Of a stretch of DNA of 40,000 bases, positions 5,085-18,103 are shown piece after piece. The notes beneath the pieces are model-generated. The model saw nothing but the letters and a program-made list of their open reading frames with translations. It made no database searches and was not told the origin of the DNA. Source of the stretch: Pseudomonas sp. NFIX28 (GTDB taxonomy: Bacteria > Pseudomonadota > Gammaproteobacteria > Pseudomonadales > Pseudomonadaceae); NCBI RefSeq assembly GCF_900107395.1, contig NZ_FNPW01000001.1:150074-190073 (forward strand), written 5' to 3'. Numbering within the stretch: the first letter of the stretch is position 1; each line of letters starts with the position of its first letter. The translations under genes were made by a program, and so were the position numbers.

Positions 5085-6065
5085 TCAAGGTATCAGCACA
5101 ATGGCGCCTTGCGCGCGGCCTTCTTGCAGGTCGGCGTGGGCCCGGGCCACGTCGGCCAAGGGGTAACGCTGCCAGATCCGTGGCTGGATGATACCCGCGG
5201 CGAAGGCGTCCAGCACATCGGCGGCGCGCATCTGGTATTCGCTGGCGCTGGCGGTGTGGGCGGCGAGGGACGGGCGGGTGAGAAACAGCGAGCCCTTGGC
5301 GTTGAGCGTGCCGACCTGCACCGCCTCCGGAGCGCCCGACGCCGCGCCGAAGGACACCAGCAGGCCGCGGGGACGCAGGCTGTCGAGGGAGGCTTCGAAG
5401 GACACCCGGCCGATCGGGTCGTACACCACATCGACCTTGTGTCCTTGAGTGACCTCGACGACCTGTCGGGCGAGGGTGGCGGCATCGAACACCAGCACCT
5501 CGTCGCAGCCGGCGGCCCGGGCTCGCTCGACGCTTTGCGCCTTGGACACCACGCCAATGACGCTGGCGCCCAGGTGCTTGGCCCAGGGCACCATCAACTG
5601 GCCCAGGGCCCCGGCGGCGCCATAGATCAGCACCCGGCTGCCGGGGCCGACGGGGTAGGTGGTCTTGAGCAGGTATTGCGCGGTGATGCCTTTGAACAGC
5701 AAGGCTGCGGCGGCATCCGAGGCCAGCTCCGGTGGCAGCTTGACCAGGCGCTCGGCCGGGTACAGGCGAGCGCTGGCATAGGCGCCGAGGGGCCCGGTGG
5801 CGTAGGCCACGCGATCGCCGACCTGGACCTGAGTGACCCCGGGACCGATTGCCTTGACCAGGCCCGCGCCTTCCAGGCCGAGCCCGCAGGGCAGGGCAAC
5901 CGGTACGGCGCCGCTGCGCTGGCTGAGGTCCAGCGGATTGACGCCGATGGCCGTCTGCTCCAGCCAGACCTCGCCGACCCCGGGCGCCTGGGCTTGTGCC
6001 TGCTCGAACTGCAGGACCTGAGGGAGGCCAACTTCATGAAGGTGTACGCGGGTGATCATGCTCAT
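5085..6065 (-). CDS. qor: NADPH:quinone oxidoreductase (zinc-independent MDR/zeta-crystallin type)
   Basis: A GroES-like N-terminal domain and the Rossmann motif VLIYGAAGALGQLMV. The ending AHADLQEGRAQGAIVLIP is typical of Qor. Confidence 0.8.
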   Translation of the reverse strand: MSMITRVHLHEVGLPQVLQFEQAQAQAPGVGEVWLEQTAIGVNPLDLSQRSGAVPVALPCGLGLEGAGLVKAIGPGVTQVQVGDRVAYATGPLGAYASARLYPAERLVKLPPELASDAAAALLFKGITAQYLLKTTYPVGPGSRVLIYGAAGALGQLMVPWAKHLGASVIGVVSKAQSVERARAAGCDEVLVFDAATLARQVVEVTQGHKVDVVYDPIGRVSFEASLDSLRPRGLLVSFGAASGAPEAVQVGTLNAKGSLFLTRPSLAAHTASASEYQMRAADVLDAFAAGIIQPRIWQRYPLADVARAHADLQEGRAQGAIVLIP

Positions 6066-6481
6066 TCTCCTGGGCGCTGCGCGCTAGCAAGCTGGGGAGA
6101 AACGAGGATAGGCTGCCGCTCCAGGGTCAACAATCCGGCCTGTTTGCATTTGACTGCTGCATGCAATGCAGCAATTGACGCCGCGTTTACCCGCCCGGTA
6201 AGAACCCGCATGATCATTGGGACCAGCCTGTCGATGCTCCGCGACAACACAAAAGAGGCGAGGAGGTGGCTTGCCCACGCCCCGATCAAGGCAGGCCCTC
6301 GGCATTGAATTATTTTATTCCTGTTCTTGACATGCCCGGCGAACAAGTCCAGAATTGCGTCCATTCCTGATTCAGGAACGCGAAAAACCCCTTAGAATTC
6401 AAAGGGTTGGAAGCTAGAGAAGTTTAAGTTTCCAGCTTCGAGTTGTATGCCTTTGATGCGGTTGCAATGCATCGAAAGTTT

Positions 6482-6555
6482 GGCCGAGTAGCAAAATGGT
6501 TATGCAGCGGATTGCAAATCCGCCTACGCCGGTTCGATTCCGACCTCGGCCTCCA
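6482..6555 (+). tRNA. tRNA-Cys (anticodon GCA)
   Basis: Folded by hand. Acceptor GGCCGAG/CTCGGCC, short D stem GCA/TGC, anticodon stem GCGGA/TCCGC with loop TTGCAAA, T loop TTCGATT, 3' CCA encoded. The T stem GCCGG/CCGAC has one C-A mismatch. Confidence 0.9.
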
Positions 6556-6563
6556 AACTGAAA

Positions 6564-6595
6564 AGCCCGTAGATCAACGATCTACGGGCTTTTTT
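6564..6595 (+). terminator. rho-independent terminator after tRNA-Cys
   Basis: 12-bp stem AGCCCGTAGATC / GATCTACGGGCT with loop AAC, followed by TTTTTT. Confidence 0.85.
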
Positions 6596-6613
6596 ATTGG
6601 CTGGAGGAAAGCA

Positions 6614-10970: not shown

Positions 10971-11078
10971 ATGAAGCGACTGACAGAGTGGATAAACCTG
11001 ATTGCCTCTATGATCCGTTTGGCTGACGTGATCCTCCGTACTGGGCTCATTGAGTGGATCAGTGATCGATTGCAGTGA
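10971..11078 (+). CDS. hypothetical 35-aa peptide
   Basis: Own translation: MKRLTEWINLIASMIRLADVILRTGLIEWISDRLQ. Its stop overlaps the GTG of the next ORF (GTGA). No clear SD. Confidence 0.2.
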   Translation: MKRLTEWINLIASMIRLADVILRTGLIEWISDRLQ

Positions 11079-11347
11079 GGTGCTACGATGGCGCCTTCAT
11101 CAAATTGGGTCGGCCCATGACAAAGCACGATATCTATGACGAGCTGGAAGGATTTCAGCTCTGGAACTACATGGAGTGCGAGAAAGACGAGGAAGGCCGG
11201 GAGACTTGGCGTATCAACGTCGAGGTGAAGCGGGGCGGGGAAGTAGTGGTGCCGGTTGTCGCTGGCGATCGCACATTCCCCGACCGCGGTCTGGCCCAGG
11301 TCGCCGGCCGAGAGCTTGGGGCGAAGTTGCTGGCGGAGCGTGGTTAA
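11075..11347 (+). CDS. hypothetical protein (start uncertain: GTG 11075 or ATG 11117)
   Basis: 90-aa ORF on the strand opposite to the early operon. It converges on and overlaps by 4 nt the end of the C5 methyltransferase gene. Confidence 0.4.
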   Translation: MRCYDGAFIKLGRPMTKHDIYDELEGFQLWNYMECEKDEEGRETWRINVEVKRGGEVVVPVVAGDRTFPDRGLAQVAGRELGAKLLAERG

Positions 11348-13506
11348 GCTGCTCGCGACTGCTGCTCGGTCACTCGCCATGGGTCGTTGGCCCTGGCCAG
11401 CGCCGCCATTGGCGGAGGGCTGACGCTGTTGCCGCACATGTGCACCTGCTGAGTCTTGGTGAACGGCTTGCCGTCGGCGCCGCGGTTGATGATGTAGTCG
11501 GCCGGGAAGCCCTGGGCCTTGTACAGCTCTGACGGCTGCAGCATCCGCAGGCAGATATCGACGATCACGTAAGGGGTGCCCTTGATGGTCACGGTGACCA
11601 GGCCGAGGCGGTCCTTGGTGGTGATAGTTGGCGCCGGTGCGTCGGCCCCACTGATGTTCTCGGTGCCGTAGTAGCTGATCAGGAAGGCCGCGACGCGCAG
11701 GGCGCCGGCTTCGATCTCTGGCGATAACTGCAACTCGACCAGCGAGCTTTTGCCTCCGCCTCCTGCTGTGATGGTGGGGGCTGGTTCGTCCACGGCTTGG
11801 CCGATACTTGCGCCAAACTGGCGCTCCATGAAGGCTGTCATCAGGCCGTGGTGAGTACCGCCGGCGCTGATGGTGTGTAGCGGGTCCGCGGCGTCTCGCG
11901 CATCGCAGTTTCCGCGCAGGTGCACCAGGTTTGCCGTCACCAGCTGCTGCTGGCTGCCGGTGTTGGTTACAGTCGTCATCGGGTCCTCGATGCTCTTGGC
12001 CGCAATGGTGTTGAAACCTCCGTTCATCTGGGCCATGAACACTGTCGAGATGCCCATGGCGTGCGCGGTGCCGGCCGGGCGCTGGTAGTTGCCACCGCTG
12101 GTGATGGTCGGCAACGGATCGTCGAGCGCTTTGCCTTCATCCGCAAACCGGAACTTGACCAGGTGCGCCGCCGCGATCGCGCGGTGGTTCTGGGTCATCA
12201 GCGTCCCGGCCGGCAAATCCACGGAGACCGGCTTGCCGGAGTACTCGGGTCCACCAGCGCCAACCAGCACCGCGCCTGTAAGGGCGTGTTTTACCCCTCC
12301 AGCGACAACAGTGCCCAGAGGCTGGTCGAGTCCTGGCACGCGCGGTTCCTGTCCGGCGCGCTCGCCATATCCGGTCTGGATCAGGGTCGGGCTGATCAGC
12401 GTTAGCTCACCGCGATTCGCGCAGGTGACGGTCGGCAGCGGGGCAGCTGGGTCGTTGATCCGGTCGCTGCCCTGGTGCGTAGCTGGCGCGATGATCGGAC
12501 TTGCCATGGCGAAAGATCCGCCGCGGGGCCAGGATGTCACAGTGCGCAGCGGCTCATGGGCTGACTGCACGCTATCGCCCGACCAGTTCGCAATCGGCAC
12601 GATGAACGGGTCAGCGGCATCGAGGACGAACTTCTTCATGCCCTTGGCGATCCGGCGCAGGGTGGCCGGCGCCAGTGGCTTCGGACGGTCAAAGATGCTT
12701 TTGCTCGGGATGGTCCAATCGATGCACTCGGCAGCGGTGCGCCACTTCTTTTGGTCCTTGGCCGGATTCTTGGCGTGGGTCGGCTCGGGCCAGACGATTG
12801 GCTGGCCGTCACATCGGGCGATCATGAACAGGCGCTCCCGGCTGGTCGGCGCGCCGAAGTCGCAGGCTTTGATCACTCGCCATTCAACGGCGTAACCCAG
12901 ACGCTGCAGCTCGGCGACGAAAACGGCCCAGGTCTGGCCGCGGCGTTTCGGGTTGGGCACCAGGAACTGCTGGTGGACCGGTACAACCTCGCCGGGGGCA
13001 GCTACTCCGCCGCCGAGCTTCACCACGCGGCCGGTGGTCTTGTCGCGCTTGGCCACCAGCGGCCCCCATTGCAGGATCTGCTTCACGTTTTCCAAGCTGA
13101 TGACGCGGGGCTTTTTCTTGCCGGCCCACTTCAGACCGATCCACGACAGGTTCCGGATCTCGCGCTTGCGCGGCTGACCGCCGGCGGCCTGGCTGTGATG
13201 CGTGCAGTCCGGCGACATGTGGAACCAGCCCACGGCCTTGCCGTCGCACTCGGTATCCGGATCTCCGTCGAAAACGTCGGTGGTGTAGTGAACTGCACCA
13301 GGGTGATTGACGGTGTGCATGCTGATCGCGCTGGCGCTGTGGTTCTTCGCGACATTCACCGCGCGGCCCAGACCCATCTCCAGCCCGGTACCGGCGCCGC
13401 CACCACCGCAGAAGAAGTCGACAACGATCTCATCGTCCTGCGTGCTGAAACCAAGTCCGTATTGGGTTTTAAAATCGAAGGGGTGTTTCTTCTGTTGTGC
13501 GGACAT
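11344..13506 (-). CDS. DNA (cytosine-5)-methyltransferase, unusually long (720 aa) with a reiterated target-recognition region
   Basis: Motif I DFFCGGGGAGTG; motif IV SPDCTHHSQAAGG; motif VI ISLENV; motif VIII TSRERLFMIA; motif IX RMLQPSELYKAQGFP; motif X CGNSVSPP. Confidence 0.9.
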   Translation of the reverse strand: MSAQQKKHPFDFKTQYGLGFSTQDDEIVVDFFCGGGGAGTGLEMGLGRAVNVAKNHSASAISMHTVNHPGAVHYTTDVFDGDPDTECDGKAVGWFHMSPDCTHHSQAAGGQPRKREIRNLSWIGLKWAGKKKPRVISLENVKQILQWGPLVAKRDKTTGRVVKLGGGVAAPGEVVPVHQQFLVPNPKRRGQTWAVFVAELQRLGYAVEWRVIKACDFGAPTSRERLFMIARCDGQPIVWPEPTHAKNPAKDQKKWRTAAECIDWTIPSKSIFDRPKPLAPATLRRIAKGMKKFVLDAADPFIVPIANWSGDSVQSAHEPLRTVTSWPRGGSFAMASPIIAPATHQGSDRINDPAAPLPTVTCANRGELTLISPTLIQTGYGERAGQEPRVPGLDQPLGTVVAGGVKHALTGAVLVGAGGPEYSGKPVSVDLPAGTLMTQNHRAIAAAHLVKFRFADEGKALDDPLPTITSGGNYQRPAGTAHAMGISTVFMAQMNGGFNTIAAKSIEDPMTTVTNTGSQQQLVTANLVHLRGNCDARDAADPLHTISAGGTHHGLMTAFMERQFGASIGQAVDEPAPTITAGGGGKSSLVELQLSPEIEAGALRVAAFLISYYGTENISGADAPAPTITTKDRLGLVTVTIKGTPYVIVDICLRMLQPSELYKAQGFPADYIINRGADGKPFTKTQQVHMCGNSVSPPPMAALARANDPWRVTEQQSRAA

Positions 13507-13559
13507 AGGGGATCCTCGCCGGTATATTGCGGATTCGTAGGGAAGTCGGATGTGATGAA

Positions 13560-14006
13560 ATGAAAATTTGGGATCGGTATCAGGAAGAGCGGAAGCACCG
13601 AAAAGATATTGAGGGGCAGATAAAGCGTATTGAACAACTCAGCAAAGTTGTTCCTGAGCAAAGTCTTGATATGGAGCTCTGGGGTTATGTTCCTGAGGAG
13701 GTCAAAACTCTTGAGCAAGCTGAGCAGTGGTTAGCCGTGCTGCAGACTGCGCAGCTTCGGCGCAGAGCCGAGCGGTATGGAATCGAAATGCCCGATACCT
13801 CTGCGGAAGACTTGGGCCGCCGGATGGAATGGGATGCGGATCAGAACGAACCTTACTATTTGACCAGCAAGGGCATGCGTCTCGTGAACCTCGCACTGCG
13901 AGAGGAAGAAAAGTATCGTTGGGATAAGTGGAATACGCGCATTTCCGTAACCATTGCGCCGCTCAGTTTGATCGTGGCGATCCTCGCACTTGTCTACGGT
14001 AAGTAG
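13560..14006 (+). CDS. hypothetical protein with C-terminal membrane anchor
   Basis: ORF 13527..14006 trimmed to the ATG at 13560. It is charged and helical, and ends in the hydrophobic tail ISVTIAPLSLIVAILALVYGK. AT-richer than its flanks and on the opposite strand to its neighbours. Confidence 0.55.
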   Translation: MKIWDRYQEERKHRKDIEGQIKRIEQLSKVVPEQSLDMELWGYVPEEVKTLEQAEQWLAVLQTAQLRRRAERYGIEMPDTSAEDLGRRMEWDADQNEPYYLTSKGMRLVNLALREEEKYRWDKWNTRISVTIAPLSLIVAILALVYGK

Positions 14007-14079
14007 GGTGCCGGCTGGCGTGATTCGTTGAAGTGTGCGTAGGCGGCTAACAGCCAATCGAATTACTGGAGGACGGTAC

Positions 14080-14808
14080 ATGCCTAACAGTTTTGCTTCT
14101 AAAGGCTTCTTGTCCTCTGACATAGACGCCTTCAAATCCTCAATCAAAAAGCAATATTCGGAGGAGTTTGATAAGGCTTCAGCGTTGTCCGAGCGAGCCC
14201 ATCAACAGCTGTTGAGTTTGCCCATGGAAGAGCAGACAGCGTGCATTCTAGCGGCCATTGTTTTTACTGAGCGCACCATACGGGGCTGCCAGGGGGCAAT
14301 TCTGCTTTGCGAATCAGGCCTTATCCAAGAAGCCCAAGTGCTAGTTCGTACCGCTACTGAAACTTTGTTTGCAGCTTCAGCACTAGTTACAGATGACCGG
14401 GTTTACGACCGAATGGCTCGCGCTAGCGATCATGAGGATTTAGTTCAAGCGCGAGGGATGATGAAGTCTCCTTGCTCGGACTTTACGGATGATCATTTGG
14501 CTGCCCTCCAAGAGGTTGTTGGGCGTGCGGAAGAAAATGCTGCTAAATATCCGATTTATGAGGCTGCACAGGCGGCCGGGCTGCTTCCTATGTATGAAAC
14601 CTTCTATCGAGGACTTTCCGCTTTAGCTAGTCATGCGACATTCCGGTCGCTCGACAGGTCTTTTGAGGGGGACGGGGAAAGCTTTACGTTCATCATGGGG
14701 CCCAGTGATAAGCAGCTAGCTTTTACATTAGGCACAGTCTGCTCGTGTCTTTCTGAAGCTATAAATTGCCTTAACAAAATATTGAATAAAGCAAATATGA
14801 AGGATTGA
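14080..14808 (+). CDS. all-helical hypothetical protein (DUF5677/AbiV-like impression, unverified)
   Basis: ORF 14035..14808 trimmed to the ATG at 14080, which is preceded by GGAGG. The segment RGCQGAILLCESGLIQEAQVLVRTATETLF resembles helical AbiV/DUF5677-type proteins from memory. Contains RMARASDH (Rx6H). Confidence 0.6.
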   Translation: MPNSFASKGFLSSDIDAFKSSIKKQYSEEFDKASALSERAHQQLLSLPMEEQTACILAAIVFTERTIRGCQGAILLCESGLIQEAQVLVRTATETLFAASALVTDDRVYDRMARASDHEDLVQARGMMKSPCSDFTDDHLAALQEVVGRAEENAAKYPIYEAAQAAGLLPMYETFYRGLSALASHATFRSLDRSFEGDGESFTFIMGPSDKQLAFTLGTVCSCLSEAINCLNKILNKANMKD

Positions 14809-14821
14809 TTGCCTTGCACCG

Positions 14822-15130
14822 CTAAACCTCGGCGCCAGTCTTGGCAAACTCTTCAAGCTGTCGCGACCACTTTTCAGTAACGACCATTTCAGGTCGTGAC
14901 ATGGTGGCGTAGCGGGCGGATTCTTCTGAGGGCGCTGCAGCCAAGTTGATCACTATCGTAGAGATCGTTTCCTGCCATTCCTCGAAGTCGTGGCGCTCGC
15001 CGAGGATCAGCAGGGCATCATCGAGCGCTTTCGAAACAATCAGCGAACGTTTCTCGGCGCCGATCCGCTCGAGCAGCGCCTTCTCCTTGGCGCGTTTGTC
15101 CTTCTGTAATTGGGCATTGCTCTTGGCCAT
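14822..15130 (-). CDS. hypothetical phage early protein
   Basis: 102-aa ORF directly downstream of the exonuclease gene in the leftward operon. Confidence 0.6.
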   Translation of the reverse strand: MAKSNAQLQKDKRAKEKALLERIGAEKRSLIVSKALDDALLILGERHDFEEWQETISTIVINLAAAPSEESARYATMSRPEMVVTEKWSRQLEEFAKTGAEV

Positions 15131-15205
15131 GGCCTACCTCTTCAATTCCACTGGCCGGCAGTGCCAGCCAGGTCTGTCGTTTGCGTTGTTGGATGCGAAA
15201 GCGTC

Positions 15206-16828
15206 TCAAGCTGCCACCTTGACCAGTCTCACGCCGGCCATGCTGAACTTGGCACCCTGAGCTGCGACCATCGCGTCGAGTGCTTCCCAGTCCACCGTCA
15301 GCACCGAAATAGGGGCTTGGCCGTAGGCGACGGCCTTGATCAACGACTCCAGATCGAACACTTCAGCCTGCAGGTTCACCGGCGCCGCAGTGGTGGTCAC
15401 TGGCTTCGTGGCGGACTGAGCCGGTGCGGTGGGTTTCACCGACGCTGGGCTGGCGACTGGTGCAGGCTCAACCGGCGCCCTGGCCTTCGCCTCGTCTTCG
15501 ATTCGCTTCAGTTCCTGTTGGCGGATCTGCTCGCGCTGGGCTTCGGCTTTCTGCTCCTCGGCCTTCTGATGTTCGGAGATCCGCACCTTGATCAGCGCGA
15601 TCAGGTCGTCGTTCGCCTTCATCACCAGCTGCTGAATGTCGTTGAACAGGAAGGCGTGATCGACTGCCAGCTCGGCCAGGCTGGCCAGATTGATGCGGAT
15701 TGCGTCCGCGGTTTGGCTGGCAGCAATTTTCGCTCGAGCCAGCTCGGTATCGACGGCGTCCTGCAGGCTGGCGATCGTGCGCTTGTTCTTCATGGCTCCA
15801 GCGAAGTCAGCCGTCACCGCGGGCAACACAACCCGACCCAGGGTCTTGTTGATCGCTGCGACGTGATCCGCCAGAGCCTGCTCGGCCTTTTGCTTGATGT
15901 TGCTCTTCACCAGCAGCTCTTGGGCTTTCACCAGCTTGTCGACTTTCAGGCGAGTTTCCCGGGCGTGTGCGCAGATGCGATCGAGAGATGAAAACAGCTC
16001 GTCGATGGTCTGGGTTTGCGAGAGAGCCTGTTTCTTCGCAGTGTCGACTGCTTGCTCGACATCGCTGCACCACTTCACAGCCTTCTTGGCGTCGGCGAAG
16101 TCCTGGTCTGTAACCAGCGTGGTCTTCACCGAGTCGATGACAGCCAGCGCCGACTCCTCGAACACCTTTAGGTTGCTCGCAGTGACCATGCCGGTCAGCT
16201 CGATGCGCAGTGCGGGCAGTTCGTCCGGGGCCTTGCCGACAACGATCGACGGCGCCTCGGCCATTTCGAAGTTGGCCAGGTCGGCCTCGAACTGCTTCCA
16301 GCCTTCGACCAGTTGTGCGGCGCGGCCGGCGACAGGCCGGTATTCCATGTGCACGAAGTTCTCGGCGGTGCCGTCAGAGCAAACAAAAATCACGCGTTCG
16401 GCGCCGCTCACCAGCAGCTGCTGCTCAAGCTGCCAGAAGTAGTGCGGCTCCAGCTCCCCGGCCTTCACCTGGGCAACCAGCGACTCGTTCCACAGCTTGT
16501 GCTCGAACAGGGTCTCGCCAAGCATCGTGGCGCCGTCCATGGAGGCCAGCAGTTTGCCGTTGGTGCCCACGACAGGGTAGAGCTCTTCGCCGATCATGGC
16601 CTCGACAAGCGGGCGGGCCAGAGCTTCGGTGGCGTGACCCTTGTCGAAGATGTGTTGTTGAGCTGGGGTGATCTCCGGCGTGATGCCGGTTTTCTTCACG
16701 GTCAGCAGGTCAGTCCGGGTTTGGTATTTCGAGACGCCCATCATGGCGGGGGCCTCGGAGGCGGTGTCGTGCTGGGCGCGGAGGGCATTCCACTCGGCGG
16801 AGCCTTGGACTATGTTGTGAATTTTCAT
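15206..16828 (-). CDS. YqaJ-type (lambda Exo-like) recombination exonuclease with a long C-terminal extension
   Basis: The N-terminus MKIHNIVQGSAEWNALRAQHDTASEAPAMMGVSKYQTRTDLL is the YqaJ signature. Its start overlaps the end of the upstream RecT gene. Roughly 340 residues follow the nuclease domain. Confidence 0.8.
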   Translation of the reverse strand: MKIHNIVQGSAEWNALRAQHDTASEAPAMMGVSKYQTRTDLLTVKKTGITPEITPAQQHIFDKGHATEALARPLVEAMIGEELYPVVGTNGKLLASMDGATMLGETLFEHKLWNESLVAQVKAGELEPHYFWQLEQQLLVSGAERVIFVCSDGTAENFVHMEYRPVAGRAAQLVEGWKQFEADLANFEMAEAPSIVVGKAPDELPALRIELTGMVTASNLKVFEESALAVIDSVKTTLVTDQDFADAKKAVKWCSDVEQAVDTAKKQALSQTQTIDELFSSLDRICAHARETRLKVDKLVKAQELLVKSNIKQKAEQALADHVAAINKTLGRVVLPAVTADFAGAMKNKRTIASLQDAVDTELARAKIAASQTADAIRINLASLAELAVDHAFLFNDIQQLVMKANDDLIALIKVRISEHQKAEEQKAEAQREQIRQQELKRIEDEAKARAPVEPAPVASPASVKPTAPAQSATKPVTTTAAPVNLQAEVFDLESLIKAVAYGQAPISVLTVDWEALDAMVAAQGAKFSMAGVRLVKVAA

Positions 16829-17712
16829 ACCGGCTCACCTTCAATCGGCGCGAGGCCTTGGATGGTTTCGATCTGCTGATCGGTCAGGGTGTACTTGCTG
16901 GCGATGGTCGCGATGACTTTCTCGGGTGTTGACCGGCCCGCGTCGATCGCGGCGCGCCATTTCGGCAGGTTCTCGGCGAGCTTGTCGTCGGGGTAATCGG
17001 GGAGTTCGTCGGGAGAGGCTGTCGGGCGTGGTGAAACGTCGCGGACAGCTGGTGCGCTTTCTTCGAGCTCGTCTGGGCTGTATACGCCTAGGATCACGTC
17101 CGGGCAGTAGAGGCGCGACCAGCGTTTGGTGGCCAGGTAGGCCAGTTGCTGGCGAGGATCGTCCGCCCAGAGCGTGCTGTTGCGGGTGCGGGCCTGGGCC
17201 AGAAGCAGCTCAAGGACGCGCGGTTCGTCCTCGCCGCGGAAGGTGGCCCAGACCTTTACGCCTAGACCTTGCTCGTCCTCCAGCTTCCAGCCCGGGACGC
17301 GGTACTCGCCCTTGTCGCCGTTCTTGATGGTGAACTGTCCGATCACCTTCTCCCAGGCTCCGAACCACTCATAGTGCAGGCGATCCATCACCGGTGCGCA
17401 GGTGGTAATGACTGCGTTGACCAGCTGAGCCTCATAGCCAAGGACGCCGTTGACCAGGTGCGTTTTCTGGGCCACCGCAAATGGATTCATCTTCCACTGC
17501 ATCGATTGCATGACGACCGCCAGACAGTCCGCAGGGTTTCCGTTGAAGTGCTTCGGTAATGTGGCGCGGCCGGTGGCCATGACTTCGGCCAGGCGCATCA
17601 TCTTGTCCAGGCTGTCGCCGTCCAGTACCAGAGCACTGGTGCTGGTTGCTGCGTGAGGAAGGACGTGAAGATTTCGATCGTGCGCCACCGGCGCCACGCT
17701 TTGTGCGGACAT
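16825..17712 (-). CDS. recT: RecT-family single-strand annealing protein
   Basis: PADCLAVVMQSMQWKMNPFAVAQKTHLVNGVLGYEAQLVNAVI is RecT-like. It is paired with a YqaJ exonuclease. Confidence 0.8.
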   Translation of the reverse strand: MSAQSVAPVAHDRNLHVLPHAATSTSALVLDGDSLDKMMRLAEVMATGRATLPKHFNGNPADCLAVVMQSMQWKMNPFAVAQKTHLVNGVLGYEAQLVNAVITTCAPVMDRLHYEWFGAWEKVIGQFTIKNGDKGEYRVPGWKLEDEQGLGVKVWATFRGEDEPRVLELLLAQARTRNSTLWADDPRQQLAYLATKRWSRLYCPDVILGVYSPDELEESAPAVRDVSPRPTASPDELPDYPDDKLAENLPKWRAAIDAGRSTPEKVIATIASKYTLTDQQIETIQGLAPIEGEPV

Positions 17713-17839
17713 GACTATTCCTTGCCGCGCCTAACGCAGCTATTGAGGAGTGGACTAAAAATGGATTGCCAACTTGCTGGCAATGGGTCTCAGTTGGTTG
17801 CTAGCATCGCCGGCCATTAACTCAGCAAAAGGACTTGTA

Positions 17840-18103
17840 ATGGCTTCCAAAAAAAAGGCACCACCATCTTTCGTTATCAAATTTGAACCGATGCAGGTAT
17901 CGATTGAGCGTCGTACGAAACAAAAAAAATGGGTGGATGCTGATTCCCTCTATTTCCGGACCAATGACGGGGTGACGCGTATCCAATACGCAGGAGAAAT
18001 TGCCGAGGAGGCATATAACGAAATTCAGATGCCGAGTGATCCAGAGTTTTTGCGATATCTTGCAAAAAAACTCAAGGCTCTAGCAAAGAAGCTGGAAAAG
18101 TGA
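17840..18103 (+). CDS. hypothetical lysine-rich protein (opposite-strand insert)
   Basis: ORF 17774..18103 trimmed to the ATG at 17840, which is preceded by AAGGA. AT-rich relative to its flanks. Confidence 0.5.
   Translation: MASKKKAPPSFVIKFEPMQVSIERRTKQKKWVDADSLYFRTNDGVTRIQYAGEIAEEAYNEIQMPSDPEFLRYLAKKLKALAKKLEK

Follow-up and report, generated by a model that had tools for sequence, protein, structure and literature searches.

A 40,000-nucleotide stretch of the Pseudomonas sp. NFIX28 genome (contig NZ_FNPW01000001.1, positions 150,074 to 190,073; hereafter the window) includes part of a Pseudomonas lambdoid prophage. Its minus-strand early operon is interrupted by an insert of two plus-strand open reading frames (ORFs), which we call genes A and B, with a C-5 cytosine DNA methylase on one side and a YqaJ/RecT recombination module on the other. 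A preliminary description of this DNA had noticed the interruption, which the ORFs, the GC profile, and the Pfam-assigned flanks confirm, and had suggested that the two genes form an abortive-infection (Abi) system of a soluble and a membrane-anchored protein. Comparison with homologous loci leads us to a different conclusion: the insert probably consists of two unrelated, independently mobile single-gene cassettes that are adjacent here, and not of a paired Abi system. Because the pairing fails, the main value of this result is corrective; a new two-gene defense system would have been notable. The two genes are as follows.

13560..14006, plus strand: gene A, an ORF for a charged, helical protein of 148 amino acids (aa) with a C-terminal transmembrane anchor; family phrog_19471
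14080..14808, plus strand: gene B, a stand-alone DUF5677 protein (PF18928) of 242 aa, all-helical with a small beta-hairpin

Distribution of genes A and B

The loci for this comparison came from species-representative genomes, IMG/VR viral contigs, metagenomes, and exact-protein look-ups, and every locus was searched by tblastn with every member of both families. Counts are given after de-duplication, with lineages defined at 95% identity and with at least 700 nt of context required upstream of B or downstream of A. No relative of A was found upstream of a relative of B (0 of 31 loci, 20 lineages). Likewise, no relative of B was found downstream of a relative of A (0 of 13 loci, 7 lineages), copies of A with 99–100% identity included. 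The preliminary description had itself named missing co-occurrence as a result that would speak against a functional pair. Since A and B were together in none of the other loci searched, the pairing is unsupported, and the sharp DNA breakpoints between the genes also speak against a recurring pair.

The neighbors of both genes change from locus to locus. In L005 and L025, what comes after a copy of A at 99–100% identity is an unrelated gene, either one of 86 aa with two transmembrane segments or one of 247 aa. Overall, the position downstream of A is occupied by genes of 59, 70, 80 plus 183, 86, 219, 226, or 247 aa, by B, or by a minus-strand gene of 254 aa. Relatives of B with 85% identity (L027, L028) are directly divergent from an N6/N4 methylase, and those with 81% (L009) and 77% (L046) are preceded by a TIR-like protein of about 290 aa. 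This latter protein (L009, 4998-5870; L046, 407-1270) is 71% identical between the two loci, matches the PADLOC TIR effector model with E = 3.9e-6, and has no match in Pfam. It may be a TIR-like or a nucleoside-deoxyribosyltransferase-like defense gene, and it recurs with B in that lineage. In L046, the relative of B (1364-2091) is split into ORFs of 181 and 72 aa, apparently by a frameshift, and the TIR-like gene upstream is intact.

The two-gene system under consideration would resemble RexA/RexB: a HEPN-like soluble protein B would sense or execute, with the membrane protein A as partner or effector. The local arrangement is compatible with this idea. The genes are neighbors on one strand, separated by 73 nt without a predicted terminator, and both are AT-rich cargo. 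Several relatives of B are also found near some small membrane protein (165 aa in L003, 155 aa in L020, 183 and 217 aa in L004, and 210 aa in L027). However, these membrane proteins are related neither to A nor among themselves, most relatives of B stand alone, and identical copies of A precede unrelated genes. In addition, the catalytic motif proposed for B is not conserved, and neither profiles nor fold searches give a HEPN signal for B (see below). The lack of co-occurrence in 20 lineages of B and 7 lineages of A largely refutes the two-gene system, which we consider very improbable.

Two other types of partner were considered and rejected. A hydropathy screen of the neighboring genes for a non-homologous membrane partner of B returned only the unrelated proteins listed above, which are missing from most loci. 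For the distant branches of DUF5677, a conserved partner was discarded because the upstream genes of L043 (184 aa) and L045 (185 aa) are unrelated. The 184-aa protein of L043 (3101-3655), encoded directly upstream of a distant DUF5677 gene, contains a classic R-x4-H sequence (LRNELIHH) and has no match in Pfam or PADLOC.

The explanation that we prefer is a composite insert: two independent single-gene accessory cassettes would occupy a recombination-prone cargo slot that extends from the methylase to the recombination module of a lambdoid Pseudomonas prophage. A is a widely shared module with its own conserved upstream region containing a TATATT box, and the cargo found after A and a conserved 26-mer differs between prophages. 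B is one example of this cargo, which occurs elsewhere without A and brings along only a Shine-Dalgarno sequence.

Protein families and the HEPN question

Gene A matches phrog_19471 with E = 4.9e-20, residues 12–134 aligning with profile positions 7–129 (123 of 142 positions), and has no match in Pfam, PADLOC, or NCBIfam. Its homologues form 26 clusters with a mean column identity of 75%. By this profile match, A is a new member of a catalogued phage family of unannotated function. A shares the profile over most of its length, but because the family carries no annotation, the match says nothing about what A does. The C-terminal membrane anchor described previously is supported both by a single hydrophobic helix at residues 125–143 in the hydropathy profile and by one long helix at residues 103–146 in the AlphaFold model (pLDDT 75). 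Foldseek searches with this model against the PDB returned nothing at E ≤ 0.001; the top matches were MarR-type proteins, which we treated as noise (E ≥ 0.36, TM ~0.25). The tail-anchored topology and the conserved, promoter-bearing placement suggest that A would be expressed in the lysogen and act on the cytoplasmic side of the inner membrane. If we had to guess, superinfection exclusion would be its most likely, though unsupported, role.

Gene B passes the gathering threshold of the Pfam family DUF5677 (PF18928) with 58.7 bits against a cutoff of 27.1 (E = 9.7e-16), and the match covers residues 59–199. This result confirms an assignment that had been made without tools, and by this measure B is a new member of a catalogued family. 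The PF18928 model accounts for only about 165 of the 242 residues of B, and the family has no assigned function. Searches of PADLOC, NCBIfam, and PHROGs with B were negative. All 68 of 68 diverse relatives also match DUF5677, and an exhaustive profile search identified 2067 cluster representatives at E ≤ 0.001, almost all of them stand-alone proteins of 235–280 aa that match over their full length. The named relatives all carry just the label "DUF5677 domain-containing protein", and the family is seldom mentioned in the literature searched. A named partner domain was seen in just one multi-domain architecture, P0211 (385 aa, on a 1.9-kb contig), in which a BrnA-antitoxin domain (E = 4.4e-11) is fused to DUF5677 (E = 8.7e-22).

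The AlphaFold model of B (pLDDT 86, pTM 0.82) consists of helices except for a small hairpin (residues 195–204), in agreement with the earlier account of an all-helical protein behind a strong GGAGG Shine-Dalgarno sequence (14068-14072). Foldseek searches against PDB and BFVD found nothing at E ≤ 0.001. Sequence-profile searches of the PDB with close and wide alignments of B returned chance or designed-repeat matches only. Across 68 diverse members, Q71, R90, and H185 are invariant, and G9, G80, E94, A163, Y172, and P208 are near-invariant (>90% of 68), with E94 present in 67 of 68; R177 is kept in 61 of 68. The segment RGCQGAILLCESGLIQEAQVLVRTATETLF, which had been singled out as reminiscent of HEPN-like AbiV/DUF5677 proteins, is indeed the conserved core: it contains the invariant Q71 and R90 together with G80 and E94 (each in 66–67 of 68). 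The DUF5677 half of that comparison was correct; the other half is unsupported, as no HEPN or AbiV model was matched. B would be a soluble, enzyme-like protein in which Q71, R90, E94, Y172, R177, and H185 form one site.

AbiV is a canonical HEPN dimer with the motif 91-RNHKSKH-97, and its RNase activity is inhibited by the RNA antitoxin abiV2 (bioRxiv 2024.05.05.592566). Like B, this Lactococcus type III toxin–antitoxin RNase (HEPN_AbiV) is a small, mostly helical, single-protein accessory gene product on mobile elements, with a beta-hairpin before the last helix and a flexible segment with a conserved histidine. However, B is about 40 residues longer and lacks a profile match, a conserved R-x(4-6)-H motif, and a significant fold match. 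Neither the canonical HEPN dimer nor the AbiV motif was found for B, and no RNA antitoxin was seen, although no search aimed at one was made. B and its 68 relatives match no HEPN or AbiV family in Pfam or PADLOC, apart from two chance-level PADLOC matches of single members (E 0.02–0.03), and B itself matches no AbiV or HEPN_AbiV model in PADLOC, Pfam, or NCBIfam. Weak matches to DUF6988 were found for 10 of the 68 relatives. The Rx6H sequence RMARASDH (R111...H118), which had been likened to HEPN-like proteins, recurs in just 6 of 34 close relatives and in 8 of the 68 diverse ones and does not characterize the family. In the family alignment, no column shows a conserved R-x(4-6)-H; the pair that is kept is R177-x7-H185. 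The only HEPN entry among the Foldseek matches is 2hsb, which appears at rank 7 amid generic helical bundles (E = 0.45, TM 0.19/0.36, rmsd 16 Å), and the AbiV structures 9BJ5-7 are not among the top 50. Since the B module starts at its Shine-Dalgarno sequence, no conserved non-coding partner upstream travels with B; an RNA partner downstream was not examined.

B could also be a divergent HEPN-type RNase that acts alone, as a single-protein Abi system or toxin, with a site made of E94 and R177-x7-H185 instead of RMARASDH. The strong conservation of these three residues is consistent with such a function. In the model, R177 is near the end of helix 169–183, H185 is in the flexible loop that follows, and E94 is on an earlier helix. 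This arrangement loosely echoes the published HEPN layout (PMC3710099), with a spacing of x7 and not 4-6. The hairpin before the last helix recurs in AbiV, and 2hsb is a structural neighbor of AbiV. On the other hand, seven intervening residues are outside the defining range of 4-6, the 68 members match no HEPN family beyond single chance-level matches, the similarity to 2hsb is not significant, 9BJ5-7 are missing from the top 50, and the invariant Q71 and R90 have no HEPN counterpart. We consider a HEPN-type RNase improbable. The broader proposal is that DUF5677 is an unrecognized, highly divergent class of HEPN-like nucleases with a helix glutamate (E94, with R90 and Q71) and an R-x7-H at a helix end, which prophages and other mobile elements would carry as a one-protein Abi or toxin module. 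This proposal, of which B would be a Pseudomonas prophage example, is quite improbable.

Module borders, expression signals, and flanks

The module borders and the flanking genes are as follows.

13491..13559, plus strand: junction and promoter-like region that travels with A; -35-like CGGACA at 13500-13505, -10-like TATATT at 13523-13528
14010..14035, plus strand: conserved 26-mer GCCGGCTGGCGTGATTCGTTGAAGTG, where the A module stops and the variable cargo slot opens; once in the window
14068..14072, plus strand: GGAGG Shine-Dalgarno sequence of gene B, the start of the B module; read from the sequence, 7 nt before the ATG
15120..15197, minus strand: linker with hairpin CTGGCTGGCACTGCCGGCCAG, Shine-Dalgarno sequence, and ATG GCC AAG; once in the window
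11344..13506, minus strand: C-5 cytosine DNA methylase, 720 aa (PF00145, E = 1.9e-24); leftward, divergent from gene A
14822..15130, minus strand: 102-aa leftward gene, convergent with B; no Pfam match
15206..17712, minus strand: YqaJ-type exonuclease (540 aa; PF09588, E = 1.1e-10) and RecT recombinase (295 aa; PF03837, E = 8.8e-42)

The insert has a GC content of 0.50 compared with 0.64 in the surrounding minus-strand operon. Across 13400-14800, values are 0.48–0.52; they are 0.64–0.67 in the methylase and 0.59–0.65 in the exonuclease/RecT block. With its AT-rich composition, its opposite orientation in the early region of a prophage, and its presence or absence between sharp breakpoints, the insert has the properties of a moron, as had been suggested; the promoter is a predicted one. 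Comparison by blastn places the breakpoints at 13491, 14006/14035, 14069/14080, and 14926/15173. Homology to loci that contain only A begins at 13490-13494 and ends at 14006, or at 14035 where the 26-mer directly follows A. Homology to loci that contain only B starts at 14069 (L009, inside the Shine-Dalgarno sequence) or at 14080 (L027-L029, at the ATG) and continues to 14926 or 15173. In most cases, relatives of B constitute a single-gene island of low GC content with a length of 700–800 nt.

Gene A always lies 45–53 nt away from a divergent, leftward gene, whatever the family of that gene (a C-5 methylase, either large or small; PAPS reductase; DUF2786; or a 257-aa protein without annotation). 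In an alignment of 10 loci, the TATATT box hardly varies, even in loci whose upstream gene is from another family. Because this spacer is conserved along with A, gene A appears to carry its own promoter. Within the junction at 13491-13531, the leftward gene has its ribosome-binding site and first codons (M-S-A-Q), both of which are common to the C-5 methylases, the DUF2786 protein, and the 257-aa protein. Since these genes are otherwise unrelated, the border of recombination is inside a coding start.

On the other side of A, the 26-mer GCCGGCTGGCGTGATTCGTTGAAGTG is found with 100% identity directly after A (L005, L025), about 820 nt after A and past another insert (L006, L007, L030), and directly before a relative of B (L026). 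By this distribution, it behaves like a module border. In most loci, the linker with CTGGCTGGCACTGCCGGCCAG (60–78 nt) is kept at 83–97% identity, and the leftward gene that follows it differs between related prophages. In L010 (6863-6902, 8359-8413) and L012 (7598-7636, 9093-9150) it is present twice and flanks the B cassette. This linker folds no better than shuffled sequences and matches no Rfam family. It may serve these prophages as a common linker for recombination or for translation initiation.

RNA folding of this junction element, of the A–B spacer, and of the stretch behind B gave z-scores of -0.5 to 0, and an Rfam scan of the window returned only a tRNA. Terminator scans predicted none between A and B or after B. 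Judged from its borders, the B module contains a Shine-Dalgarno sequence only and no promoter of its own. Since no terminator is predicted between the genes, B would here be transcribed by read-through from the promoter of A, so that the two genes would form an operon by juxtaposition only. Expression of both from the prophage would run counter to the lytic early operon, and each gene would act on its own.

The backbone genes of the prophage are 80–86% identical in DNA sequence to those of temperate Pseudomonas phages. DNA and protein searches of GenBank phages with the insert, gene A, and gene B gave no match; only the backbone genes matched Pseudomonas phages. Homologues of the methylase (70–96% identity) adjoin relatives of A or B in L005, L006, L019-L021, and L023. 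The closest relatives of B are accompanied by the 102-aa gene or its 3' remnant, with homologues of 77–85% identity in L009, L016, L017, and L046 and remnants in L026-L029. The exonuclease (15206-16828, minus strand, 540 aa) has its YqaJ domain at residues 12–144 only, and its unassigned C-terminal ~390 residues are rich in A, E, K, and Q. Two further plus-strand ORFs are located in GC dips (0.48–0.52) of the minus-strand operon, at 17774-18103 (109 aa) and 11075-11347 (90 aa). They are possible additional morons; neither has a Pfam match, and the 90-aa ORF is 98% conserved in L005. The tRNA gene (6482-6552, plus strand; RF00005, 60.8 bits) may mark the site of prophage attachment, or the phage itself may encode it.

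Functional context and comparison with known systems

From its family and surroundings, B would most likely be a single-protein phage-defense or conflict effector. Cargo of the defense type has been found in the slot, namely the TIR effector match in L009 and putAbiC in L032. The latter gene (5710-6609, PF16872) occupies the same early-region neighborhood of a prophage that bears A, which supports the view that this region collects defense cargo. Within the wider B family, 9 of 68 members weakly match PDC-S52 (best E = 2e-4), a PADLOC phage-defense candidate that is single-gene like B; B itself does not match, and PDC-S52 is only a candidate, of which we found no mention in the literature searched. 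Distant DUF5677 genes occur beside a resolvase with HsdM, or beside integrase, PIN, HNH, or Schlafen-like genes. DUF5677 is also reported to be enriched near serine recombinases in defense-island contigs (PMC12632615). The moron properties of the insert, the stand-alone nature and invariant polar residues of the family, and the BrnA-antitoxin fusion point in the same direction.

Several points weigh against the combined picture of two independent cassettes with B as a defense effector. The only DUF5677 ORF tested for defense, a distant Bacillota member, was not among the ORFs that protected against six Enterococcus phages (PMC12632615). Some distant DUF5677 genes are located in ordinary chromosomal settings, between aldehyde dehydrogenase and NtrY, and neither A nor B directly matches any PADLOC or NCBIfam model. 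One relative of B (88% identity, L026) shares the 26-mer and has just 80 nt of upstream context, so that this locus could hide a second A+B pair. The promoter scan of 13491..13559 yielded one site, which is no more than expected by chance, and we only infer co-transcription of A and B and their expression in the lysogen. Finally, the clustering of the invariant residues of B in one site is argued from helix positions in the model and not from coordinates.

Some of these observations would also fit an explanation in which neither gene is defensive. A and B could be cargo that benefits the phage or is neutral, such as a regulator, an anti-defense factor, or a modifier of host physiology, or B could be a housekeeping-type protein. 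The unprotective ORF, the non-mobile chromosomal contexts, and the absence of direct PADLOC matches are consistent with this idea. So is the fact that A is more conserved than its neighbors (91% in L006, compared with 74% for the methylase), as would befit a role important to the phage itself. By contrast, the counter-operon orientation, the AT-rich composition, and the TIR-like and AbiC-like genes in the same slot speak for defense, as do the weak PDC-S52 similarity of the wider B family and its mobile or defense-island neighborhoods. On balance, we consider a non-defensive role unlikely, though less so than any HEPN-based explanation.

The insert exemplifies, within clear limits, a cargo slot of lambdoid prophages in Pseudomonas whose module borders have short conserved linkers, and this example could guide hotspot-based mining for defense genes. 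The truly conserved residues Q71, R90, E94, Y172, R177, and H185 offer targets for mutagenesis in a large, uncharacterized family that recurs on mobile elements. The phrog_19471 family is flagged as a conserved, tail-anchored protein with a predicted promoter that marks the slot.

Among known systems, lambda RexA/RexB and similar exclusion pairs resemble A and B in that they are prophage-encoded, presumably expressed in the lysogen, and consist of a soluble and a membrane protein encoded side by side. However, pairs of this type are defined by conserved co-occurrence, which fails for A and B, and they have no sequence similarity to either protein. RexB is polytopic, whereas A has one C-terminal transmembrane helix. 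The moron and defense hotspots of P2-like and lambdoid phages share with this insert the conserved flanks, the variable AT-rich cargo, the counter-operon orientation, and the presence of defense-type genes. The slot described here differs from these hotspots by identifiable short conserved linkers at the module borders (the 26-mer on one side; the hairpin, Shine-Dalgarno sequence, and ATG on the other). These border linkers may mediate the exchange of modules.

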